Positions 1,668-9,264 of a stretch of 46,405 nt of DNA are shown here, piece by piece. The notes beneath the pieces were generated by a model. That model was not told where the DNA came from. It saw only the letters and a list, made by a program, of their open reading frames with translations, and did no database searches. The stretch is from a virus (taxonomy: Duplodnaviria > Heunggongvirae > Uroviricota > Caudoviricetes): the IMG/VR virus record IMGVR_UViG_2687453454_000004; one strand, given 5' to 3'. A program made the translations under genes and the position numbers. Each line of letters opens with the position of its first letter. The first letter of the stretch is position 1.

Positions 1668-2765
1668 ATGGCGTACTATAACATAGAGAAACGACTAAAA
1701 TCCGATGGCACACCACGCTATCGCTGTAATGTGATTATCAAAGAAAAAGGTGTTATCACTTACAGGGAAAGCAAAACATTCCCTAAACATGCTCATGCCA
1801 AAACATGGGGCGCACAGAAAGTGATGGAATTAGATCTATATGGCATTCCATCATCAAATGCTGTTGACGGACTTACAGTCCGTGACTTACTACACAAATA
1901 TTTAAATGACCCAAATGCCGGAGGTAAAGCAGGCCGTACTAAAAGATATGTGCTGGAACTGCTTATGGATAGTGACATCTCCGCGATCAAACTATCTGAA
2001 CTGACAGAAAATGACGTAATTGAACATTGCAGGCTAAGAAACAACGCTGGTGCAGGCCCAGCAACAGTCAGCCACGATGTTAGTTATCTTGGCAGTGTTC
2101 TGGATGCGGCAAAACCTGTATACGGAATCAATTACACATCAAACCCGGCGAAAAGCGCTCGTCCATATCTACTTAAACTCGGTTTGATTGGTAAATCAAA
2201 CCGTCGTAATCGTAGACCAGCATCTGATGAACTGAACATGCTCATTGAAGGCCTTCAACAACGATCTACTCATAAATGCTCAAAAATTCCGTTCGTTGAT
2301 ATCCTCAAATTTTCTGTGTGGTCCTGTATGCGAATCGGAGAAGTATGCCGGTTACGATGGGAAGATCTCGACCAGGAACAAAAATCTATACTAGTAAGAG
2401 ACAGGAAAGATCCACGTAAAAAGGAAGGCAACCATATGAAAGTTGCCTTGCTTGGGGAAGCCTGGGATATCGTCCAGCGACAACCCAAAAAATCAGAATT
2501 CATTTTTCCATATAACAGCACTTCTGTTACCGCAGGATTTCAGAGGGTAAGAAGCAAATTAGGTATTAAAGATCTGAGATACCATGATTTGCGTAGAGAA
2601 GGGGCAAGTCGCTTATTTGAGGCTGGTTTTAGTATTGAGGAAGTCGCTCAGGTTACAGGGCATCGTTCATTAAACGTGCTATGGCAGGTATATACCGAAC
2701 TGTATCCGAAATCTTTACATAATCGTTTTGAAGAACTCCAAAGGAGCAGAAATAAGACCTCTTGA
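1668..2765 (+). CDS. int: Tyrosine recombinase / phage integrase (dusA-targeting type)
   Basis: 365 aa; ATG with GAGG RBS; C-terminal catalytic motifs (MRIGEVCRLRWEDL, HDLRREGASRL, VTGHRSLNVLWQVYT); adjacent to and divergent from the dusA 5' end. Confidence 0.9.
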   Translation: MAYYNIEKRLKSDGTPRYRCNVIIKEKGVITYRESKTFPKHAHAKTWGAQKVMELDLYGIPSSNAVDGLTVRDLLHKYLNDPNAGGKAGRTKRYVLELLMDSDISAIKLSELTENDVIEHCRLRNNAGAGPATVSHDVSYLGSVLDAAKPVYGINYTSNPAKSARPYLLKLGLIGKSNRRNRRPASDELNMLIEGLQQRSTHKCSKIPFVDILKFSVWSCMRIGEVCRLRWEDLDQEQKSILVRDRKDPRKKEGNHMKVALLGEAWDIVQRQPKKSEFIFPYNSTSVTAGFQRVRSKLGIKDLRYHDLRREGASRLFEAGFSIEEVAQVTGHRSLNVLWQVYTELYPKSLHNRFEELQRSRNKTS

Positions 2766-2793
2766 CACTGTTTATCCATACAGTTAAAAATAA

Positions 2794-2813
2794 TACTGTA
2801 TACAAATACAGTG
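2794..2813 (+). promoter_or_regulatory. LexA (SOS) box upstream of the dinI-like gene
   Basis: tACTGTatacaaatACAGtg fits CTGT-N8-ACAG consensus exactly; 13 bp upstream of the ATG at 2826. Confidence 0.65.
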
Positions 2814-2825
2814 TAGGGGACTTTT

Positions 2826-3074
2826 ATGCGTATTGAAATCTGCATAGCCAAAGAAAAAATGACTAAAATGCCAACCGGTGCTGTGGATGCGTTAAAGGAA
2901 GAATTAACCCGACGCATCAGTAAACGTTATGACGATGTAGAAGTGATCGTAAAAGCCACCAGCAACGATGGCCTTTCTGTTACGCGCACCGCTGATAAAG
3001 ATTCAGCTAAAACTTTTGTTCAGGAGACTCTGAAAGATACCTGGGAGTCTGCTGACGAGTGGTTTGTTCATTAA
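2826..3074 (+). CDS. DinI-family DNA damage-inducible protein (prophage copy)
   Basis: 82 aa, MRIEICIAK...[11 protein letters not shown] resembles DinI/MsgA family; AGGGGA RBS; preceded by LexA box. Confidence 0.75.
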
Positions 3075-3105
3075 GTTCATCATCTCTGGACACCATTCAC
3101 TTGTA

Positions 3106-3135
3106 TTGACTTTAAGATCATTAAATTGTAATAAT
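3106..3135 (+). promoter_or_regulatory. Putative sigma70 promoter for the RT module
   Basis: TTGACT (3106-3111), 17-bp spacer, TG-extended TAATAA (3129-3134); predicted start about 3142, just before the structured leader. Confidence 0.35.
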
Positions 3136-3140
3136 TCAAA

Positions 3141-3275
3141 GGGATGGGGCAGGTTTTTCCTCTTGCGCATGCAAGGGCGGCTCTGATAATGAACAGTAAT
3201 ATTTTACTGTTGAGCTTATGCTCACTGATCCTGCCGGGCAGGATGTTCAACGGTTCCAATATATCCTGCCCCTTC
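3141..3275 (+). ncRNA. Candidate structured leader / ncRNA of the RT module
   Basis: 8-bp inverted repeats ggggcagg (3146-3153) and cctgcccc (3265-3272) flank about 110 nt containing four hairpins (3162-3175, 3193-3210, 3212-3223, perfect 17-bp palindrome 3228-3244); no ORF. Confidence 0.25.
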
Positions 3276-3296
3276 CGCTTTTAAAAAGGATCTTTT

Positions 3297-3848
3297 ATGC
3301 ATGACAATATTTGGTTTACATATAAAGCACGTATCCAAGCGCACCATCGACTAGAATGGCTTGAAAAACACTCTCAATTTATCCTCGTTTGGTATGCTAT
3401 ATTGAGTGCGGTACTTTCAATTGTAACGTTGCGATTTCCAAAGGTTCTAGGAGATAATACAGATGTCGTTGCGGCGATACTTTCAGTGGCTCTACTGGGT
3501 ATTTCTCTGATCGTATCTAACCTAGATTTTCGTGGTCGAGCAATAGCCATGAGAAGGAATTATATTGCACTACAGCGACTCTATTTTGACATTACCACCA
3601 GTCAACAGTTATCTCTTGAACAGAAAGAAAAATATTTTAATTTGCTCAATGAGGTTGAGAATCACCGTGACATAGATGATAAAATTTCAAGGGTAACTCA
3701 AGTTGGACTTAAGACGAGGATCCCCACACAAAAAGAAAAAATAATTGTTATTTTATGGATATTACTTCGAATATTTATTACTGCCGCACTTTATATACTC
3801 CCATTAATATATCTTTGGATTGACTATGACTGCAAGCAGAATTTTTAA
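3297..3848 (+). CDS. Multi-pass membrane protein, SLATT-like putative pore-forming effector
   Basis: 183 aa; AAGGA RBS; hydrophobic helices at about residues 27-46, 57-76 and 150-176 with a soluble middle segment; 3' end overlaps the RT start; AT-rich; SLATT assignment is an inference. Confidence 0.6.
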   Translation: MHDNIWFTYKARIQAHHRLEWLEKHSQFILVWYAILSAVLSIVTLRFPKVLGDNTDVVAAILSVALLGISLIVSNLDFRGRAIAMRRNYIALQRLYFDITTSQQLSLEQKEKYFNLLNEVENHRDIDDKISRVTQVGLKTRIPTQKEKIIVILWILLRIFITAALYILPLIYLWIDYDCKQNF

Positions 3849-5196
3849 AAAGTCATTCTCGAAAAAAAATCTTCTAAAAGTATACTCTGAAAAAATCAAA
3901 GAATCAGGAGCGATTGGCATAGATCGGATTCGCCCATCAAAACTTGATTTGACAATAAAAAATGAGATCACTTTCATTTTTGAAAAGGTTAATTCTGGCA
4001 ATTACAAATTTACAGCATATAAAGAAAAATTAATATCTAAAGGCGCTAACTCTACACCCAGACAGATTTCCATACCAACTGCTAGGGACAGAATTACTCT
4101 TAGAGCTCTCTGTGAATGCCTTACGGAAATATATCCTAAGTCCAGATTAAAACTACCACATACAGTAATTGACTCATTGAAAGAAGCATTAAACAACAGT
4201 CTATATGCTGAATATGCAAAAATAGATCTTAAAAGTTTCTATCCTTCAATTGAACATAAATTGATAATTAATGCAATAAAAAATAAAATTAGAAAAAAAG
4301 AAATTAGACAGTTAATAACATCATCATTAATCGTGCCTACTGTAAGTGGAACCACAGGAAGCAAAGGTATCCCTAATAATACCAGAGGAGTACCTCAGGG
4401 ATTAGCGATATCAAACATTTTAGCTGAAATATCACTATCTAATTTCGATGATGAAATCAATAAAATGCATGACATATGGTACATGCGATACGTTGATGAC
4501 ATTCTTATTTTAACACCAAAATATCAAGCAACAAAAATAGCTTCTCATATCATTGATAAGCTTCAATCATTAAATTTAAACCCACATCCATTAAATGAAG
4601 AGAACTCAAAATCCAAAGTAGGCAGCTTGGATGAAAGTTTCAACTTTTTGGGCTACCACATAAAAAATCGAGAATTATTGATAAAACATGAGAGCATTCT
4701 TAGATTTGAGTCATCCTTAGCAAAAATTTTTACTGCATATAGACACGCTCTACTACAAGCTAAAAATAAGCGCGATAAAGAACGAGCTGTTGCATATTGT
4801 CAGTGGAAACTAAATCTTAGAATTACGGGATGTGTGTTTGAAGGTAAACGATTGGGATGGGTATCGTACTTCTCACAAATAACGTCAACAGCTCAACTTC
4901 GAGCTGTTAATCATACGATCAATAATCTTATCCGCCGATTCGGCCTTTCATCAGAAATAAAACCAAAGTCTTTGATTAAAACTTTCTATGAACTCCGCAG
5001 GGGTAGAGCGGAGACTTTTAAATACATACCTAACTTTGACAATCTACATATATCTCAGAAACGAGAAATTGTTTCTATGTGGATAGGGAAAGAGAATGAA
5101 AAAAAACTTAGCAATAGTGAAATAGAGAGAAAATTTAAATTTAAAATTGCGAAATCAGTAAAAGAGCTTGAAGAGGACATTTCAGGGATATCATAG
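3820..5196 (+). CDS. Reverse transcriptase (unclassified: retron-like or UG/Abi-like)
   Basis: 458 aa (ORF track starts at TTG 3820; first ATG at 3826); RT motifs RQISIPTARDR, KIDLKSFYPSI, GVPQGLAISNILAEISL, YMRYVDDILIL (YVDD), FNFLGYHI; about 150-aa C-terminal extension. Confidence 0.9.
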   Translation: MTMTASRIFKKSFSKKNLLKVYSEKIKESGAIGIDRIRPSKLDLTIKNEITFIFEKVNSGNYKFTAYKEKLISKGANSTPRQISIPTARDRITLRALCECLTEIYPKSRLKLPHTVIDSLKEALNNSLYAEYAKIDLKSFYPSIEHKLIINAIKNKIRKKEIRQLITSSLIVPTVSGTTGSKGIPNNTRGVPQGLAISNILAEISLSNFDDEINKMHDIWYMRYVDDILILTPKYQATKIASHIIDKLQSLNLNPHPLNEENSKSKVGSLDESFNFLGYHIKNRELLIKHESILRFESSLAKIFTAYRHALLQAKNKRDKERAVAYCQWKLNLRITGCVFEGKRLGWVSYFSQITSTAQLRAVNHTINNLIRRFGLSSEIKPKSLIKTFYELRRGRAETFKYIPNFDNLHISQKREIVSMWIGKENEKKLSNSEIERKFKFKIAKSVKELEEDISGIS

Positions 5197-5308
5197 ATAT
5201 GTAATCCATTAAATCCTTTATATATAAAGCAATAAACACACTATTTAAATTCACAAATCAGCCGCAGTATCCTGCCATGACAAGTTGCTGCGGCATATCA
5301 CAAAACGA

Positions 5309-5491
5309 TTACTCCATAACAGGGACCGCAGGCCACTCAATATCAGGTGCAGTTGATGTATCAACACGGTTCAGCAACACCCGATACTTTTTCCAGGCTT
5401 CCAGCAATGAGGTTTCTTCCTCCGTTGCGATCTCCAGCTCAACAACAGTCTGAACGTACCGGGAACAGCCTCCTTCAGAGCTTGAAGGATA
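5309..5491 (-). pseudogene. 3' remnant of a tail fibre assembly gene (tfa)
   Basis: Start-less frame encodes ...[42 protein letters not shown], matching the conserved Tfa C-terminus from memory; in frame directly after the stf stop codon. Confidence 0.65.
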
Positions 5492-8400
5492 TCAATGTTC
5501 GCTTCCTGTTAACTGCCGGACAAGTGCAACCAGTTCGCTTACCTGATTTTCCAGAGTGCTGATCCGGGTGTCTGCTGTTGCCAGATTTTGACGTAGCGTT
5601 GTGTTTTCCTCTTCCAGCGCGGTAACGCGATCATCTGTTTCACGGGCGACCTGGACAAGTAAACCAGTCACCGCCGCATAATCAACATTGAGGTAACGCG
5701 TTTCTTCGCGTAGCTCGTTGCCATCAATGGTCGGACCCTGCAATTCTTCACCGTAACGAGTAAACGATCCTACGGCTTCCGGTAGCGCCTCCATTACTTC
5801 CTGTGCAATAACGCCAGCATAAGGAAGGCCGTTTTCCTTGAGCGTGTAGGTGTACCCGTTCATTTTGCGGATTGCTTTCGTCGCGTCGCTGATAACGAGA
5901 ATATCGTCTTTAAGGTCGCGGTCTGATGACTGATTCAGCGTTGTGCAATTAATAGCGCCATTTACATCAAACAACTGGCCTGCTGGCGTTCTTTGCGCAT
6001 AAAACAGATACGCAGCAGACGTTCCAACCTCAAAAACGTTTTGTCGATCACTTGAACCCCATACACTGATGTTAAACGGTAGTTCTGCATTACCTGCGTT
6101 CTTTAAAACAAAACGATTGCCAGTCCCTGACTGTTTTCTAATTACTAAATCAGCAGTTGAGTTAACCTCATCTTTGTTGATGGTTAGCGCCTGTGCTGTA
6201 GCACCGTTGACAGTACCGCTTAGTAGTTGCACCGCGCCATCATCGCCATTTAACAGCACTTGAGCGCTGCTTCTGTGGTTTTTAAGGCACAACATTTTTC
6301 CCGTGTTTTCCGATGTACCTACTGACCACGCCGAATTGGTTCCAGTGCTATCAACACCGCGCACAGCACAATTCATACTACTGTAATCTGACGTACTCCC
6401 CAGCACATCAACACGCCCGCCGCCTAATTTTGATGGAGTCGTCGAGGTTAACGACCTGACGGTCACATCCTGATTCCATCCTGAAACAACATGCTCGCTC
6501 CATGCTGTCCAATTACCATTAGTAACAAAACGAACATGCACGCGTCCTTTGTCGCCGCTAATCAGCGTTTGCATGTTTATATAATCTGAATCACTAACCT
6601 TACGAATTGACTCTACACGAAGCAAAAAGTTGCCGCCTACGCCGTCAGGCTTATTGGTAATATTCGAACCGCCTCCGGCAGTTTTGCAGTGATAGTATTT
6701 AACTGAACCTTTATCCGTGAACTTAATGATAAGGTCATTAAGATCGATAGTCATGCCTTCAATGGCTTCCGGCTCGATAGGCCCAGACATACCTGCGTTA
6801 AATGTGGCAAGGTCAGAAAATGTTGTTTTGCCGCCTACCGTTACCCCGCTATCGAGTATTGCTTGTGTAATTACTTTGCTGTTTTTTGTGTGGTCAGAAT
6901 AACCACCAAAATACAAATCACCGTCACCGTATATGCCGAGATATTTTTGGTCAACGTCATCAACCTTAAACCCAATGGATAAATTTTTAATTGTGTTGTT
7001 GCGCGTTAAAACCAGAGGAGTATGCTGAGATCCTTTTATGCTTACCGTAGTATCATCGGATCTAGTGCTTGTGTTTGCAAATTCTGCTTTTGCGCCTTTA
7101 GTTTTACCCGCTAATGTGAGATCACGGGCTTCAACCATCCCGTCGTGACGAACAATAAAATCACCACTTGATTGACCTTTTGCGTTTTTAGCCCTGATGT
7201 GAACTTCGCCAAGCGTATCAGTATTTGTAGGCGCAAAAATAACGCCGCGTTCCGACTGATCCTCATTTTGGAACCATACATGGGCGGTTCCACTTTTTGA
7301 ACGCAGGAATAGTGAAGGTGTTGCTTTAGTGATCGACAGATTACCTGACATAATGTCGCCGGATTTTTTCACCTGCGCATCGTTAGTTACGTTACCAAGT
7401 CCAACATCCGATTTCGACGGCTTGTATTTGGTTCCGTATAGCTCATTTATGTTAAAAGTACCATTGTTGAGTCTATTATCGTTACTAGAGTAAATCTTTA
7501 CTCTACCGCTTTCGTAATCGATATTAATAGCTGACCACGTATCGCCGCACCGCGAGAATATACCAGAACCGTGGCTGAAAATTGTTGATTCGCTACCTGT
7601 TGGTTTTCCTGACCTCCAGAAACACCCACCTTTCGCCCTTAGCTCTTGTAGTAGTTCCTTATCGGTCATTTTACCATCCAAAACAAGACCGCTACCGCCA
7701 AGACCAAAAGCGCCTATAAGCATAGCATTAGAAAGGCCCAAATCTGCTTTAGTCGGCTTGTTTACCTGGTCGTAAATCCTTACAACGTTGCCTTCAATAT
7801 ATCCAGAAGGCGCGGCGGTTTGCTTAACAAATCCGTCTGGAATGTATAATTCTGTGTTTAGTGTTGTCTGCGCCAGCACCGCAACCTTTGCGTCGTTAAT
7901 AAACGCACCCTGGAATGCCCAAACCTCAATAAAGCCGTCACCTTTAACCAGGCCGTAACGCATCTGGTTGTTATCGGTCAGCCCGGTTGACCCTAAGCGG
8001 CGTATACTCAGATGACGAGAAACATTATCCGCACTAAGCAAAGAAGGCAGACCGCGCGCCGAGATCTCGATAAAGTCAATGTTTCCGTAAGGGGAGCCGT
8101 AGTTACCAGCGTTAGTAACCATTAGCGTTACATGACTTCTGCTGGTTCCAGGATCGGAAAGTTTCGCGATCTTGATGTAAAGAGACTCACTAGCAGTAAC
8201 AACAGGCCAATCGTATTGCGTCATCGGGCTGACGAGTCCCCCGACCTTGTCGAGATATTCTTTCGCCTTGTTCTCTGACGCTTTAGCGTTGGTTTCGCTG
8301 ACCTTTGCTGCTGACTCACTATTTTTCGCGTTGGTTTCTGATTTTTTGGCTGCTGTCGCGGAGTTTGCCGATGCAGTTTGTGAGTCTGCTGCCGCCTGTG

Positions 8401-9253
8401 CGCTGTTATCCGCATTCGTCTCAGACGTTTTTGCGGCCTTCGCGGAATTTCCTGCTGCCGTTGCCGAGGAAGCTGCACTGCCGGCGCTCGAGGCAGCGCT
8501 CGTTTCTGATGATTTTGCCGCCACTTTTGAAGCCGACGCATCCCGGGCTGAGGTGGCAGCTTCTGACGCTTTCGTGGTCGCGGTGGATGCAGATGTGGCC
8601 GCAGATTTTTGTGATGCTGCGGCATTCATTTCCGACGTTTTCGCTGCACCGGCACTGGTGGCTGCCGCGCTTTTTGAAGACTCTGCAGCGGCAGCACTTT
8701 TTGATGCTTCAGTAGCCTTTGCTGATGCCGTTCCTGCGCTGGAAGACGCTGACTGAGCCGACGACGCGGCCTGTCCGGCTGACGTGCTGGCTGCACGTGC
8801 TGAGCCTGCAGCATCAGTCGCACGGGTTGCCGCCTCACGGGCTGATGTGCCGGCATCGCTGGCTGACTTCTTCGCGGCTGCTGTGTTCTGCGCCACTGCG
8901 GACGCGTTACGCGCCACCTCTTCCACCATCAGTTCAAAGCGGCGCAGTGCCTCCGGACGGGCATCATCCTCCGTCATGGCACCGAGAAAATCATTCAGCG
9001 TACCGGGTCGGGAATCTTCATACACGGTGATGGTCCCGGCATGTGACGGCGGGAATCCTTCCACCAACAGAATAACGCTGTACTGACCGTACTCAACGTC
9101 CATGCTGTAACGCCCGGCTTCATCCGGATTTTCAGATGCCACCGTGTTCACCACCACCGTGGTGCTGTTACGTTTTGCTTTCAGCTGGATTGTGCAGTTC
9201 TGTACCGGTTTACCTGCACCGTCTTTCAGTACACCTGAAATCTTTACTGCCAT
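5492..9253 (-). CDS. stf: Side tail fibre with C-terminal intramolecular-chaperone domain
   Basis: N-terminus MAVKISGVLKDG... as in lambda Stf (ATG at 9253; track start 9259); Ala/Ser-rich repeat region; C-terminus (NQSSDRDLKDDI...YTYTLKENG...coiled coil) resembles the self-cleaving S74-type chaperone. Confidence 0.85.
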   Translation of the reverse strand: MAVKISGVLKDGAGKPVQNCTIQLKAKRNSTTVVVNTVASENPDEAGRYSMDVEYGQYSVILLVEGFPPSHAGTITVYEDSRPGTLNDFLGAMTEDDARPEALRRFELMVEEVARNASAVAQNTAAAKKSASDAGTSAREAATRATDAAGSARAASTSAGQAASSAQSASSSAGTASAKATEASKSAAAAESSKSAAATSAGAAKTSEMNAAASQKSAATSASTATTKASEAATSARDASASKVAAKSSETSAASSAGSAASSATAAGNSAKAAKTSETNADNSAQAAADSQTASANSATAAKKSETNAKNSESAAKVSETNAKASENKAKEYLDKVGGLVSPMTQYDWPVVTASESLYIKIAKLSDPGTSRSHVTLMVTNAGNYGSPYGNIDFIEISARGLPSLLSADNVSRHLSIRRLGSTGLTDNNQMRYGLVKGDGFIEVWAFQGAFINDAKVAVLAQTTLNTELYIPDGFVKQTAAPSGYIEGNVVRIYDQVNKPTKADLGLSNAMLIGAFGLGGSGLVLDGKMTDKELLQELRAKGGCFWRSGKPTGSESTIFSHGSGIFSRCGDTWSAINIDYESGRVKIYSSNDNRLNNGTFNINELYGTKYKPSKSDVGLGNVTNDAQVKKSGDIMSGNLSITKATPSLFLRSKSGTAHVWFQNEDQSERGVIFAPTNTDTLGEVHIRAKNAKGQSSGDFIVRHDGMVEARDLTLAGKTKGAKAEFANTSTRSDDTTVSIKGSQHTPLVLTRNNTIKNLSIGFKVDDVDQKYLGIYGDGDLYFGGYSDHTKNSKVITQAILDSGVTVGGKTTFSDLATFNAGMSGPIEPEAIEGMTIDLNDLIIKFTDKGSVKYYHCKTAGGGSNITNKPDGVGGNFLLRVESIRKVSDSDYINMQTLISGDKGRVHVRFVTNGNWTAWSEHVVSGWNQDVTVRSLTSTTPSKLGGGRVDVLGSTSDYSSMNCAVRGVDSTGTNSAWSVGTSENTGKMLCLKNHRSSAQVLLNGDDGAVQLLSGTVNGATAQALTINKDEVNSTADLVIRKQSGTGNRFVLKNAGNAELPFNISVWGSSDRQNVFEVGTSAAYLFYAQRTPAGQLFDVNGAINCTTLNQSSDRDLKDDILVISDATKAIRKMNGYTYTLKENGLPYAGVIAQEVMEALPEAVGSFTRYGEELQGPTIDGNELREETRYLNVDYAAVTGLLVQVARETDDRVTALEEENTTLRQNLATADTRISTLENQVSELVALVRQLTGSEH

Positions 9254-9264
9254 ATTCACCCCAC

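Follow-up and report, generated by a model that had tools for sequence, protein, structure and literature searches.

The locus at positions 3297-5196 of the virus record IMGVR_UViG_2687453454_000004 is, as judged from its sequence, an intact DRT10 (UG17) anti-phage system, carried as cargo by an Escherichia coli prophage and belonging to a known family. The record was analysed over its whole length of 46,405 nucleotides (nt), hereafter referred to as the window. The locus very probably represents a complete DRT10 (UG17) system of the Eco3 type, in which the gene encoding a SLATT membrane protein precedes the one encoding the reverse transcriptase (RT). A preliminary description, made from the raw sequence, had proposed a two-gene module (membrane effector plus RT) that might represent an unclassified or new RT defence family. 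Its call of a defence system was correct and adds no new biology, given that the family, its three parts, the tandem-repeat complementary DNA (cDNA), and the serine priming were all reported before, and tests have been made on an allele almost identical to this one. The interest of the locus is mild and concerns a natural two-base variant of the template, which is the commoner one in E. coli, and a possible second register of copying. Moreover, a precise annotation can now be given, namely a non-coding RNA (ncRNA) at 3142-3278, the RT start at 3826, and Ser456 as the presumed priming residue.

The association of UG17 RTs with SLATT proteins was defined between 2020 and 2022; Mestre et al. 2022 (PMC9226505) described the pairing and predicted a role in defence. 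The name DRT10 comes from two preprints of 2025 and 2026, i.e., Tang et al. 2025 (10.1101/2025.10.16.682844) and Sanchez-Nieto et al. 2026 (10.64898/2026.04.29.721553). According to the former, three E. coli DRT10 systems protect against phages, and defence requires the RT active site, the SLATT protein, and an ncRNA located 5' of the SLATT gene. The RT produces kilobase-long tandem repeats from a short, repeat-flanked template with an A-B-A' pattern, and protein-linked, tandem-repeat cDNA was shown for Eco1-3 and for six other systems (Tang et al.). The latter authors divided UG17 into the subtypes A, B, and C.

The reverse transcriptase and the SLATT protein

Both open reading frames (ORFs) lie on the + strand where the preliminary description had placed them, that is, at 3297-3848 (183 amino acids, aa) and from TTG 3820 or ATG 3826 to 5196; the overlap between the two genes amounts to 29 nt if counted from the TTG and to 23 nt if counted from the ATG, as it had claimed. 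The features of this region are the following:

3297..3848, + strand: SLATT_5 membrane protein, 183 aa, presumed effector (Pfam, NCBIfam, PADLOC, hydropathy)
3826..5196, + strand: UG17/DRT10 reverse transcriptase, 456 aa (PADLOC RT_UG17, Pfam RVT_1), overlapping the SLATT gene by 23 nt
4489..4500, + strand: catalytic YVDD (Y222-D225), invariant in 24 homologues
5191..5193, + strand: codon of Ser456, the last RT residue and presumed protein-priming nucleophile, invariant in 24 homologues with identity down to 59%

The RT sequence matched the PADLOC RT_UG17 profile over the whole model (profile positions 1-429 of 429; 526.6 bits, E 1.1e-158), the next-best PADLOC families being Drt3a (130 bits), Drt2 (85 bits), and Drt9 (69 bits). 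It also matched Pfam RVT_1 (E 7e-21), and 1973 homologues were retrieved at E <= 1e-20. The full-length RT_UG17 match, together with the literature on UG17 and DRT10, implies that the RT family is not new, and the idea of an unclassified one has to be abandoned. The profile searches suggested in the preliminary description did confirm a SLATT_5 protein and a defence family, with the RT falling into the known UG17 class.

Concerning the RT start, the 458-aa ORF opening at TTG 3820, as originally proposed, is possible; however, ATG 3826 (456 aa) is most likely the codon used, since it is the start in the NCBI PGAP annotation of an identical locus, the equivalent methionine is the start in all 23 aligned homologues, and a GGA lies 6 nt 5' of it. 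Motifs 1-2, A, B, and C, which had been recognized in the translation, are all present and, numbered from ATG 3826, invariant in 24 homologues: R79-QISIPT-A-R87DR89, D134 (motif A), Q191 and G192 (motif B), and Y222, V223, D224, and D225 (motif C). In Eco3_DRT10 the change from YVDD to YVAA abolishes defence; furthermore, S456 is the priming residue of that system, and the S456A mutation abolishes both cDNA synthesis and defence (Tang et al.). By analogy, Ser456 of the window RT is presumed to be the priming residue.

The AlphaFold model of the RT, built on an alignment of 24 sequences, had a mean predicted local distance difference test (pLDDT) score of 84. The nearest solved folds were those of group II-like RTs, DRT9 RT-ncRNA complexes, a diversity-generating retroelement (DGR) RT, and DRT2; neither the sequence search nor the fold search found a solved DRT10 structure among the PDB entries, and both retrieved only general RT relatives.

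The partner protein belongs to SLATT_5 according to both Pfam (E 1.3e-28, 100 bits versus a curated cut-off of 29.5) and NCBIfam (E 8.5e-40, 136 bits versus a cut-off of 60), and it matched the PADLOC model of RT-associated SLATT proteins (RTasSLATT) with E 1.5e-56. Kyte-Doolittle analysis, in which 19-mers scoring at least 1.6 were considered, gave peaks at residues 27-45, 55-73, and 149-177, in agreement with the two N-terminal and one C-terminal hydrophobic helices that had been noticed before. A Shine-Dalgarno-like AAGGA is located 6 nt 5' of the SLATT ATG, and in identical loci the product is annotated as a SLATT domain-containing protein. The overlap with the RT gene is present in relatives too. 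The RT_UG17 and SLATT matches and the DRT10 literature bear out the preliminary reading of an anti-phage RT system with a membrane effector.

The comparison with the E. coli allele carrying the Eco3 template revealed 445 identical residues out of 456 in the RT (97.6%), 179 out of 183 in the SLATT protein (97.8%), and 134 identical nt out of 137 in the ncRNA (97.8%). Besides, E. coli proteins near-identical to those of the window are present in the dataset of Tang et al. An identity of about 97-98% in all three parts suggests that the window cassette would confer phage defence, and protein-linked synthesis of tandem-repeat cDNA can be predicted for this locus by the same analogy.

A non-coding RNA encoded upstream of the SLATT gene

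The module had been considered to consist of two genes and to begin at 3297. This part of the preliminary description does not hold, because a third part, the ncRNA that contains the template, lies 5' of that position with a putative promoter of its own. The ncRNA falls outside the coordinates that had been assigned to the module; the clone suggested at the same time (3106-5196) would take in both the predicted promoter and the ncRNA. The elements of this region are as follows:

3106..3135, + strand: predicted sigma-70 promoter of the ncRNA (TTGACT, 18-nt spacer, TG-extended AATAAT)
3142..3278, + strand: DRT10 ncRNA, Eco3 type, 137 nt (covariance model, compensatory changes, minimum free energy fold)
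3142-3153 with 3265-3276, + strand: stem-loop (SL) 1 of the ncRNA, basal stem (consensus structure)
3160-3177, + strand: SL2 of the ncRNA (consensus structure)
3192-3211, + strand: SL3 of the ncRNA (consensus structure)
3212-3223, + strand: SL4 of the ncRNA (consensus structure)
3228-3244, + strand: SL5 of the ncRNA (consensus structure)

The DNA upstream of the SLATT gene was compared with that of 22 other loci, comprising E. coli alleles and representatives of Serratia, Xenorhabdus, Klebsiella, Pantoea, Erwinia, Photorhabdus, Pectobacterium, Buttiauxella, Proteus, Pseudomonas, and Stutzerimonas. These regions align well, despite an RT identity of just 58-83%. A covariance model trained on 20 relatives, none of them from E. 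coli, matched just once within the entire 46 kb of the window, at positions 3140-3279 of the + strand (127.1 bits, E 8.5e-33), a score as high as those of the relatives. In the alignment, 94.9% of the paired cells could form pairs, versus 46-57% in controls in which the partners were slid; compensatory changes on both sides affected 18 of the 34 pairs, across five helices, and none of 500 shuffles reached the observed pairing values. The same five helices were found in the minimum free energy fold of the isolated 137-mer (3142-3278; -57.2 kcal/mol). The ends of the ncRNA were fixed by fitting the published numbering to the Eco3-template allele: with position 1 at 3142, the mutant names U110, C116, A117, and U119 agree with the bases present. 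When 2700-5600 was compared with Rfam at E <= 1, no known RNA family covered the ncRNA; IS009, farther downstream and under its threshold, was the sole genuine match.

Two other pairings were considered and rejected. When 3075-3296 is folded as a whole, 3148-3153 pair with 3230-3235 and 3236-3244 with 3263-3271 (-66.6 kcal/mol), so that the 3' arm of SL5 joins the 3' strand of SL1 and encloses the template; the longer transcript prefers this hairpin because the stems of SL5 and SL1 share GCAGG/CCUGC in this allele. However, only 62.8% of this pairing is possible in the relatives, and the isolated 137-mer adopts the consensus structure. RNAalifold, in turn, proposed a pairing of 44-48 with 82-86 instead of SL4; we kept SL4 since it displays an exchange of A-U to G-C, whereas the rival helix varies on one side only.

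The promoter role of 3106-3135 is suggested by a consensus scan (10 of 12 matches plus the TG motif), which would set the transcription start at about 3142; in the Serratia, Klebsiella, and Pseudomonas relatives, too, a TG-extended -10 element occurs, and its spacing from the first stem is unchanged.

The UG17 relatives found in Alphaproteobacteria (L015-L021) have an RT identity of 31-34%, with a SLATT relative 5' of the RT in two of them. The Eco3-type covariance model did not match in these loci, which were left out of the analysis; this agrees with the published statement that UG17 ncRNA models work solely within subtypes.

The template and the predicted repeat

The loop that follows SL5 is predicted to hold the template, whose A-B-A' arrangement, at 3248-3260, begins three nt past SL5:

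3245..3264, + strand: template loop GUUCAACGGUUCCAAUAUAU, unpaired in the consensus structure and positionally homologous to that of Eco3
3248-3251, + strand: A, CAA(C)
3252-3256, + strand: B, GGUUC
3257-3260, + strand: A', CAA(U)

By positional homology, the window template would be CAACGGUUC, with CAAU as the realignment site. The Eco3 template CAAUGAUUC, followed by CAAU, occurs verbatim at the homologous position in three E. coli alleles (L027, which belongs to another prophage, L040, and L041), where the loop reads GUUCAAUGAUUCCAAUAUAU. In view of the identical template, the fit of the base numbering, and S456, the window locus is compared directly with the Eco3 type. In 22 of 23 relatives, a (U)CAA...(U)CAA repeat occupies the homologous place, whereas the B segment between its halves varies.

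The cDNA repeat of the window allele is predicted to be 5'-GAACCGTTG-3', of 9 nt, giving a product (GAACCGTTG)n. In the window, A and A' match at three bases out of four, with a G:U pair at the fourth; a mismatch at that template position is tolerated (Tang et al.). A second repeat, GUUC...GUUC, with a period of 8 nt, is present in this allele and in several relatives. It could offer a second register, whose product would read CGTTGAAC, and a cryptic site of such a kind was described for Eco1 (Tang et al.).

E. coli thus harbors two template alleles, CAACGGUUC of the window and CAAUGAUUC of Eco3, which vary at positions 3251 and 3253, and two of the three differences between the ncRNAs of the E. 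coli alleles fall in the 9-nt template (C110 and G112). Of 188 genomes, 82 carry the 60-nt template region exactly as it is in the window, and in another class the loop of SL5 alone is different; the window template is that of the two commoner sequence classes among the E. coli genomes, and it is shared with Xenorhabdus, Klebsiella, and Erwinia. If SLATT activation, or the evasion of phage counter-defence, depends on the repeat sequence, the existence of two alleles might reflect selection acting on the cDNA, although we regard this as unlikely. If true, the repeats made by the window allele might be mixed or altered, and the range of phages affected might differ as well. In any case, the template of the commonest E. 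coli allele, two bases from the studied one, provides a natural variant with which the importance of the repeat sequence can be tested.

Proposed mechanism

On the basis of the homologous systems, we can depict the following scenario for the window locus:

i. The 137-nt ncRNA would be transcribed from its own promoter, directly past dinI; independent transcription of the ncRNA has been shown for a related system, i.e., a different UG17-A one (Sanchez-Nieto et al.).

ii. The RT would bind the ncRNA, as shown for Eco3_DRT10, and would prime from the hydroxyl of its own C-terminal Ser456, copying the template CAACGGUUC directly 3' of SL5; the priming residue is derived from Eco3_DRT10 and the template from positional homology.

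iii. At the 5' boundary of the template, the nascent ...GTTG-3' end would unpair and re-anneal to the downstream CAAU through three Watson-Crick pairs and a G:U pair, and the realigned template would then be copied anew.

iv. Telomerase-like cycles of this kind would generate long single-stranded DNA (ssDNA) of 9-nt tandem repeats, (GAACCGTTG)n, covalently bound to the RT; here the mechanism comes from homologues and the product is predicted.

v. The repeat DNA would be made constitutively, its level being restrained by the host 3'-5' exonuclease ExoI (SbcB), as shown in a UG17-A system and, genetically, in a UG17-B system (Sanchez-Nieto et al.).

vi. Infection would perturb the ssDNA metabolism, e.g., via a phage SSB-like protein, and alter the repeat DNA in amount or in state; the SLATT membrane protein, co-translated with the RT, would then be activated and the infected cell halted, this last link being a proposal in both papers.

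In other UG17 systems, the loss of SbcB is lethal in a manner dependent on the RT, the ncRNA, and the SLATT protein, and a phage SSB-like protein is needed for activation (Sanchez-Nieto et al.). Since the SbcB genetics is causal, the activation of SLATT by accumulated or altered cDNA is the reading that we favour for the last step.

The same system might operate with the opposite last step, in which the repeat DNA acts as an antitoxin that holds SLATT inactive, and infection lowers the cDNA and frees the membrane protein. This was proposed by Tang et al., who observed that the Eco3_DRT10 cDNA falls after infection with Bas18; as this fall was seen in Eco3, the closest tested relative of the window, the proposal stays a live rival for the window's type, and we consider it possible, though distinctly the less probable of the two. 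The fall is nevertheless correlative and may arise as a side effect of the infection. In the UG17-A system, moreover, first-strand cDNA rises on infection (Sanchez-Nieto et al.), and the loss of ExoI, which is expected to raise the cDNA, is lethal and needs RT, ncRNA, and SLATT.

Some points count against the assignment and the scheme depicted above. All the activity of the window allele is predicted, and its template is two bases (C110 and G112) off the tested Eco3 one. The GUUC repeat, with its 8-nt period, could give a second register or imprecise repeats. The link to Eco3 is made through the shared template, the fit of the published base numbers, and S456, rather than through an accession. 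With regard to the subtype, the overlapping genes in the order SLATT then RT and the Pseudomonadota host fit UG17-A, but the model system of UG17-A has another type of ncRNA, and the placement would follow from gene order and host phylum rather than from a tree. Lastly, the two papers conflict on the direction in which the cDNA changes upon infection, up in one (Sanchez-Nieto et al.) and down in the other (Tang et al.).

Other explanations of the locus fare worse than the antitoxin proposal. That the locus represents a decayed, non-functional copy, a passive passenger of the prophage, might be suggested by the neighbouring tail-fibre-assembly gene, which is a remnant, and by the dinI gene, which is frameshifted in some alleles; it is very unlikely, however, given that both ORFs are full length and retain all the invariant residues, the ncRNA scores level with its relatives, and identical copies occur in many unrelated strains. 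A different class 2 UG system (DRT3, DRT9, or DRT2) is barely plausible. The RT does show the weaker Drt3a, Drt2, and Drt9 matches reported above and a fold similar to the DRT9 RT-ncRNA complexes, but these scores are far under that of UG17, and the NCBIfam ones remain below their cut-offs (Drt3a 112.6 versus 200, Drt2 76.5 versus 390, and Drt4 26 versus 450). In addition, no second RT (Drt3b) accompanies the gene, and the template is neither a U-run, as in DRT9, nor an ACAC repeat, as in DRT3.

A retron would make multicopy ssDNA from an msr/msd RNA and use a two-transmembrane effector, as in Retron-Ec48-like systems. Some databases label homologues of the RT as 'retron-type reverse transcriptase', the combination of an RT with a membrane protein resembles some retron types, and Rousset et al. 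initially termed a UG17 locus a putative retron. The probability of this explanation is practically negligible: the NAxxH and VTG motifs are absent from the translated sequence, as the preliminary description had pointed out in setting the RT apart from retrons, and the NCBIfam retron_St85_RT score is 58 bits versus a cut-off of 235, against 526 bits for UG17. Rfam has no match in 3075-3300 at E <= 1, and the conserved RNA does not have an msr/msd layout, since its five helices form a closed arrangement and its short template lies between repeats. Equally negligible is a group II intron-type RT/maturase, or its remnant, devoid of a defence role: the TIGR04416 match (E 4.5e-42, residues 16-374) reaches 144 bits versus a cut-off of 300, the group II and group II-like RTs that are the best solved-structure relatives reflect a resemblance general among bacterial RTs, the search of 2700-5600 at E <= 1 yielded no group II intron RNA, and across genera the RT gene is always accompanied by SLATT_5 and the ncRNA.

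Prophage context and the cargo slot

The DRT10 cassette lies in a lambdoid prophage next to dusA, whose genes include an integrase (1668-2765), a DinI-like gene, and then J, Lom, a tail fibre, the terminase, and a CI-like repressor. The features adjoining the system are the following:

3075..~5290: cargo cassette (promoter, ncRNA, SLATT, RT, and about 90 nt of 3' flank), delimited by similarity breakpoints
2826-3074: DinI-like gene (Pfam E 1e-19)
5286-5437: remnant of a tail-fibre-assembly gene (tfa), about 150 nt, 92-97% identical to the 3' end of tfa in two prophages lacking DRT10 (L036 and L037)
5492-9259, - strand: tail-fibre gene, 1255 aa (phage_tail_N E 5e-72), with a C-terminal Peptidase_S74 intramolecular chaperone domain
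5352-5552, - strand: match to Rfam IS009 (RF02111), 95.3 bits, E 7e-22, under the gathering score of 117

The similarity to dinI-bearing prophages without DRT10 ends at 3074 and restarts at 5286, and the DRT10 alleles of other prophages diverge at 5294. The stretch between the dinI-like gene and the end of the tail-fibre gene is AT-rich, as had been observed, with a G+C content of 0.29-0.37 over 3400-5400 versus 0.40-0.46 in the flanking segments, 0.55 in dusA, and 0.52 in the tail-fibre gene. At least 15 complete E. coli genomes contain the region 3075-5200 with 100% identity, and among 5426 genomes it was present in 188, chromosomal in every case; the prophages that carry the cassette occupy at least three attachment sites (dusA, prfC, and yecD/aspS).

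No intact tfa follows the remnant in the window; a separate assembly protein may perhaps be dispensable, since the tail fibre carries a Peptidase_S74 chaperone domain. Lying across both the tfa remnant and the 3' end of the tail-fibre gene, the IS009 match may just reflect conserved prophage coding sequence.

The slot between dinI and the tail fibre holds different contents in related prophages, which supports the preliminary interpretation of the region as a prophage moron hotspot. It is empty in one prophage, and it harbors the type III secretion effectors EspM2 and EspW in E. coli O157:H7 (L037, 4311-6871), two unannotated proteins of 344 and 252 aa in a prfC prophage of E. coli UTI89 (L038, 4257-6148), an invertase and duplicated tail-fibre-assembly genes in an O68:H12 prophage with the same dusA integrase (L039, 3954-5387), and a DUF4760 protein in another prophage. 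The dinI segment was found at 3403 places in 1737 of the 5426 genomes, and DRT10 at 190 of those places. The slot is therefore a documented variable cargo site, and unannotated genes found in it elsewhere may be better targets for discovery, the two UTI89 proteins being candidate unknown cargo.

In prophages at prfC and yecD/aspS (L026 and L029, 2234-2453), the dinI-like gene is annotated as frameshifted and the DRT10 genes are intact; therefore, DinI is probably unnecessary for the system. About 4 kb past the CI-like repressor gene, the - strand encodes at 44405-44977 a protein of 190 aa that contains a SocA/Panacea antitoxin domain (E 1.8e-18) and may be part of another toxin-antitoxin or defence cargo.

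Comparison with known systems

Eco3_DRT10 (Tang et al.) shares with the window the order ncRNA, SLATT, and RT, an ncRNA of 137 nt that combines a basal stem with four small stem-loops and a template loop of 20 nt, a 456-aa RT with YVDD and a terminal Ser456, and an adjoining tyrosine recombinase. The two differ in the template, which is CAAUGAUUC in Eco3, with the repeat GAATCATTG, and CAACGGUUC in the window, with the predicted repeat GAACCGTTG. The window also differs from Eco3 in the A/A' match of three bases out of four, with a G:U at the fourth, and in the extra GUUC repeat with its 8-nt period.

The UG17-A system E3659, from Escherichia sp., for which a phage defence dependent on the RT, the SLATT protein, and the ncRNA has been reported (Sanchez-Nieto et al.), is likewise tripartite (ncRNA-SLATT-RT), with overlapping genes, an ncRNA that lies 5' of SLATT and is transcribed independently in E3659, and a template between short repeats. 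It differs in having an RNA of about 143 nt with six predicted stem-loops, a template ACUUAUUACU with the 7-nt repeat AGTAATA, and an RT gene of 1,338 nt (about 445 codons), and nothing in the window ncRNA corresponds to the probe sequence published for E3659. The SbcB and SSB-like trigger data belong to the E3659 system, not to the window's type. The H120 RT-SLATT locus, which makes sbcB essential (Rousset et al. 2020/2021), is also formed by a UG17 RT and a SLATT_5 protein in an E. coli prophage; we did not retain it as the same system, because its RT precedes SLATT and Sanchez-Nieto et al. placed it in UG17-B, so that it represents a relative and not the window's type.

At a greater distance, DRT9 (UG28) shares with the window a class 2 UG RT, a protein-primed reaction, and a related fold (Foldseek E of about 1e-10), and Tang et al. 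consider its ncRNA to be comparable in shape, closed and with multiple hairpins; DRT9 differs in its U-run template, its poly(dA) product, and its tyrosine primer, and the PADLOC Drt9 score of the window RT is the 69 bits given above. Telomerase, i.e., the telomerase RT (TERT) with the telomerase RNA, resembles DRT10 in that a short template is copied again after realignment of the product on a flanking repeat, and in that a stem 5' of the template forms the boundary. DRT10 differs from it in being protein-primed rather than chromosome-end-primed, bacterial, and devoted to defence. In the PDB sequence search the RT family profile detected TERT chains (E 7e-8), a match that is no test of an evolutionary link between DRT10 and telomerase but agrees with the one claimed by Tang et al.

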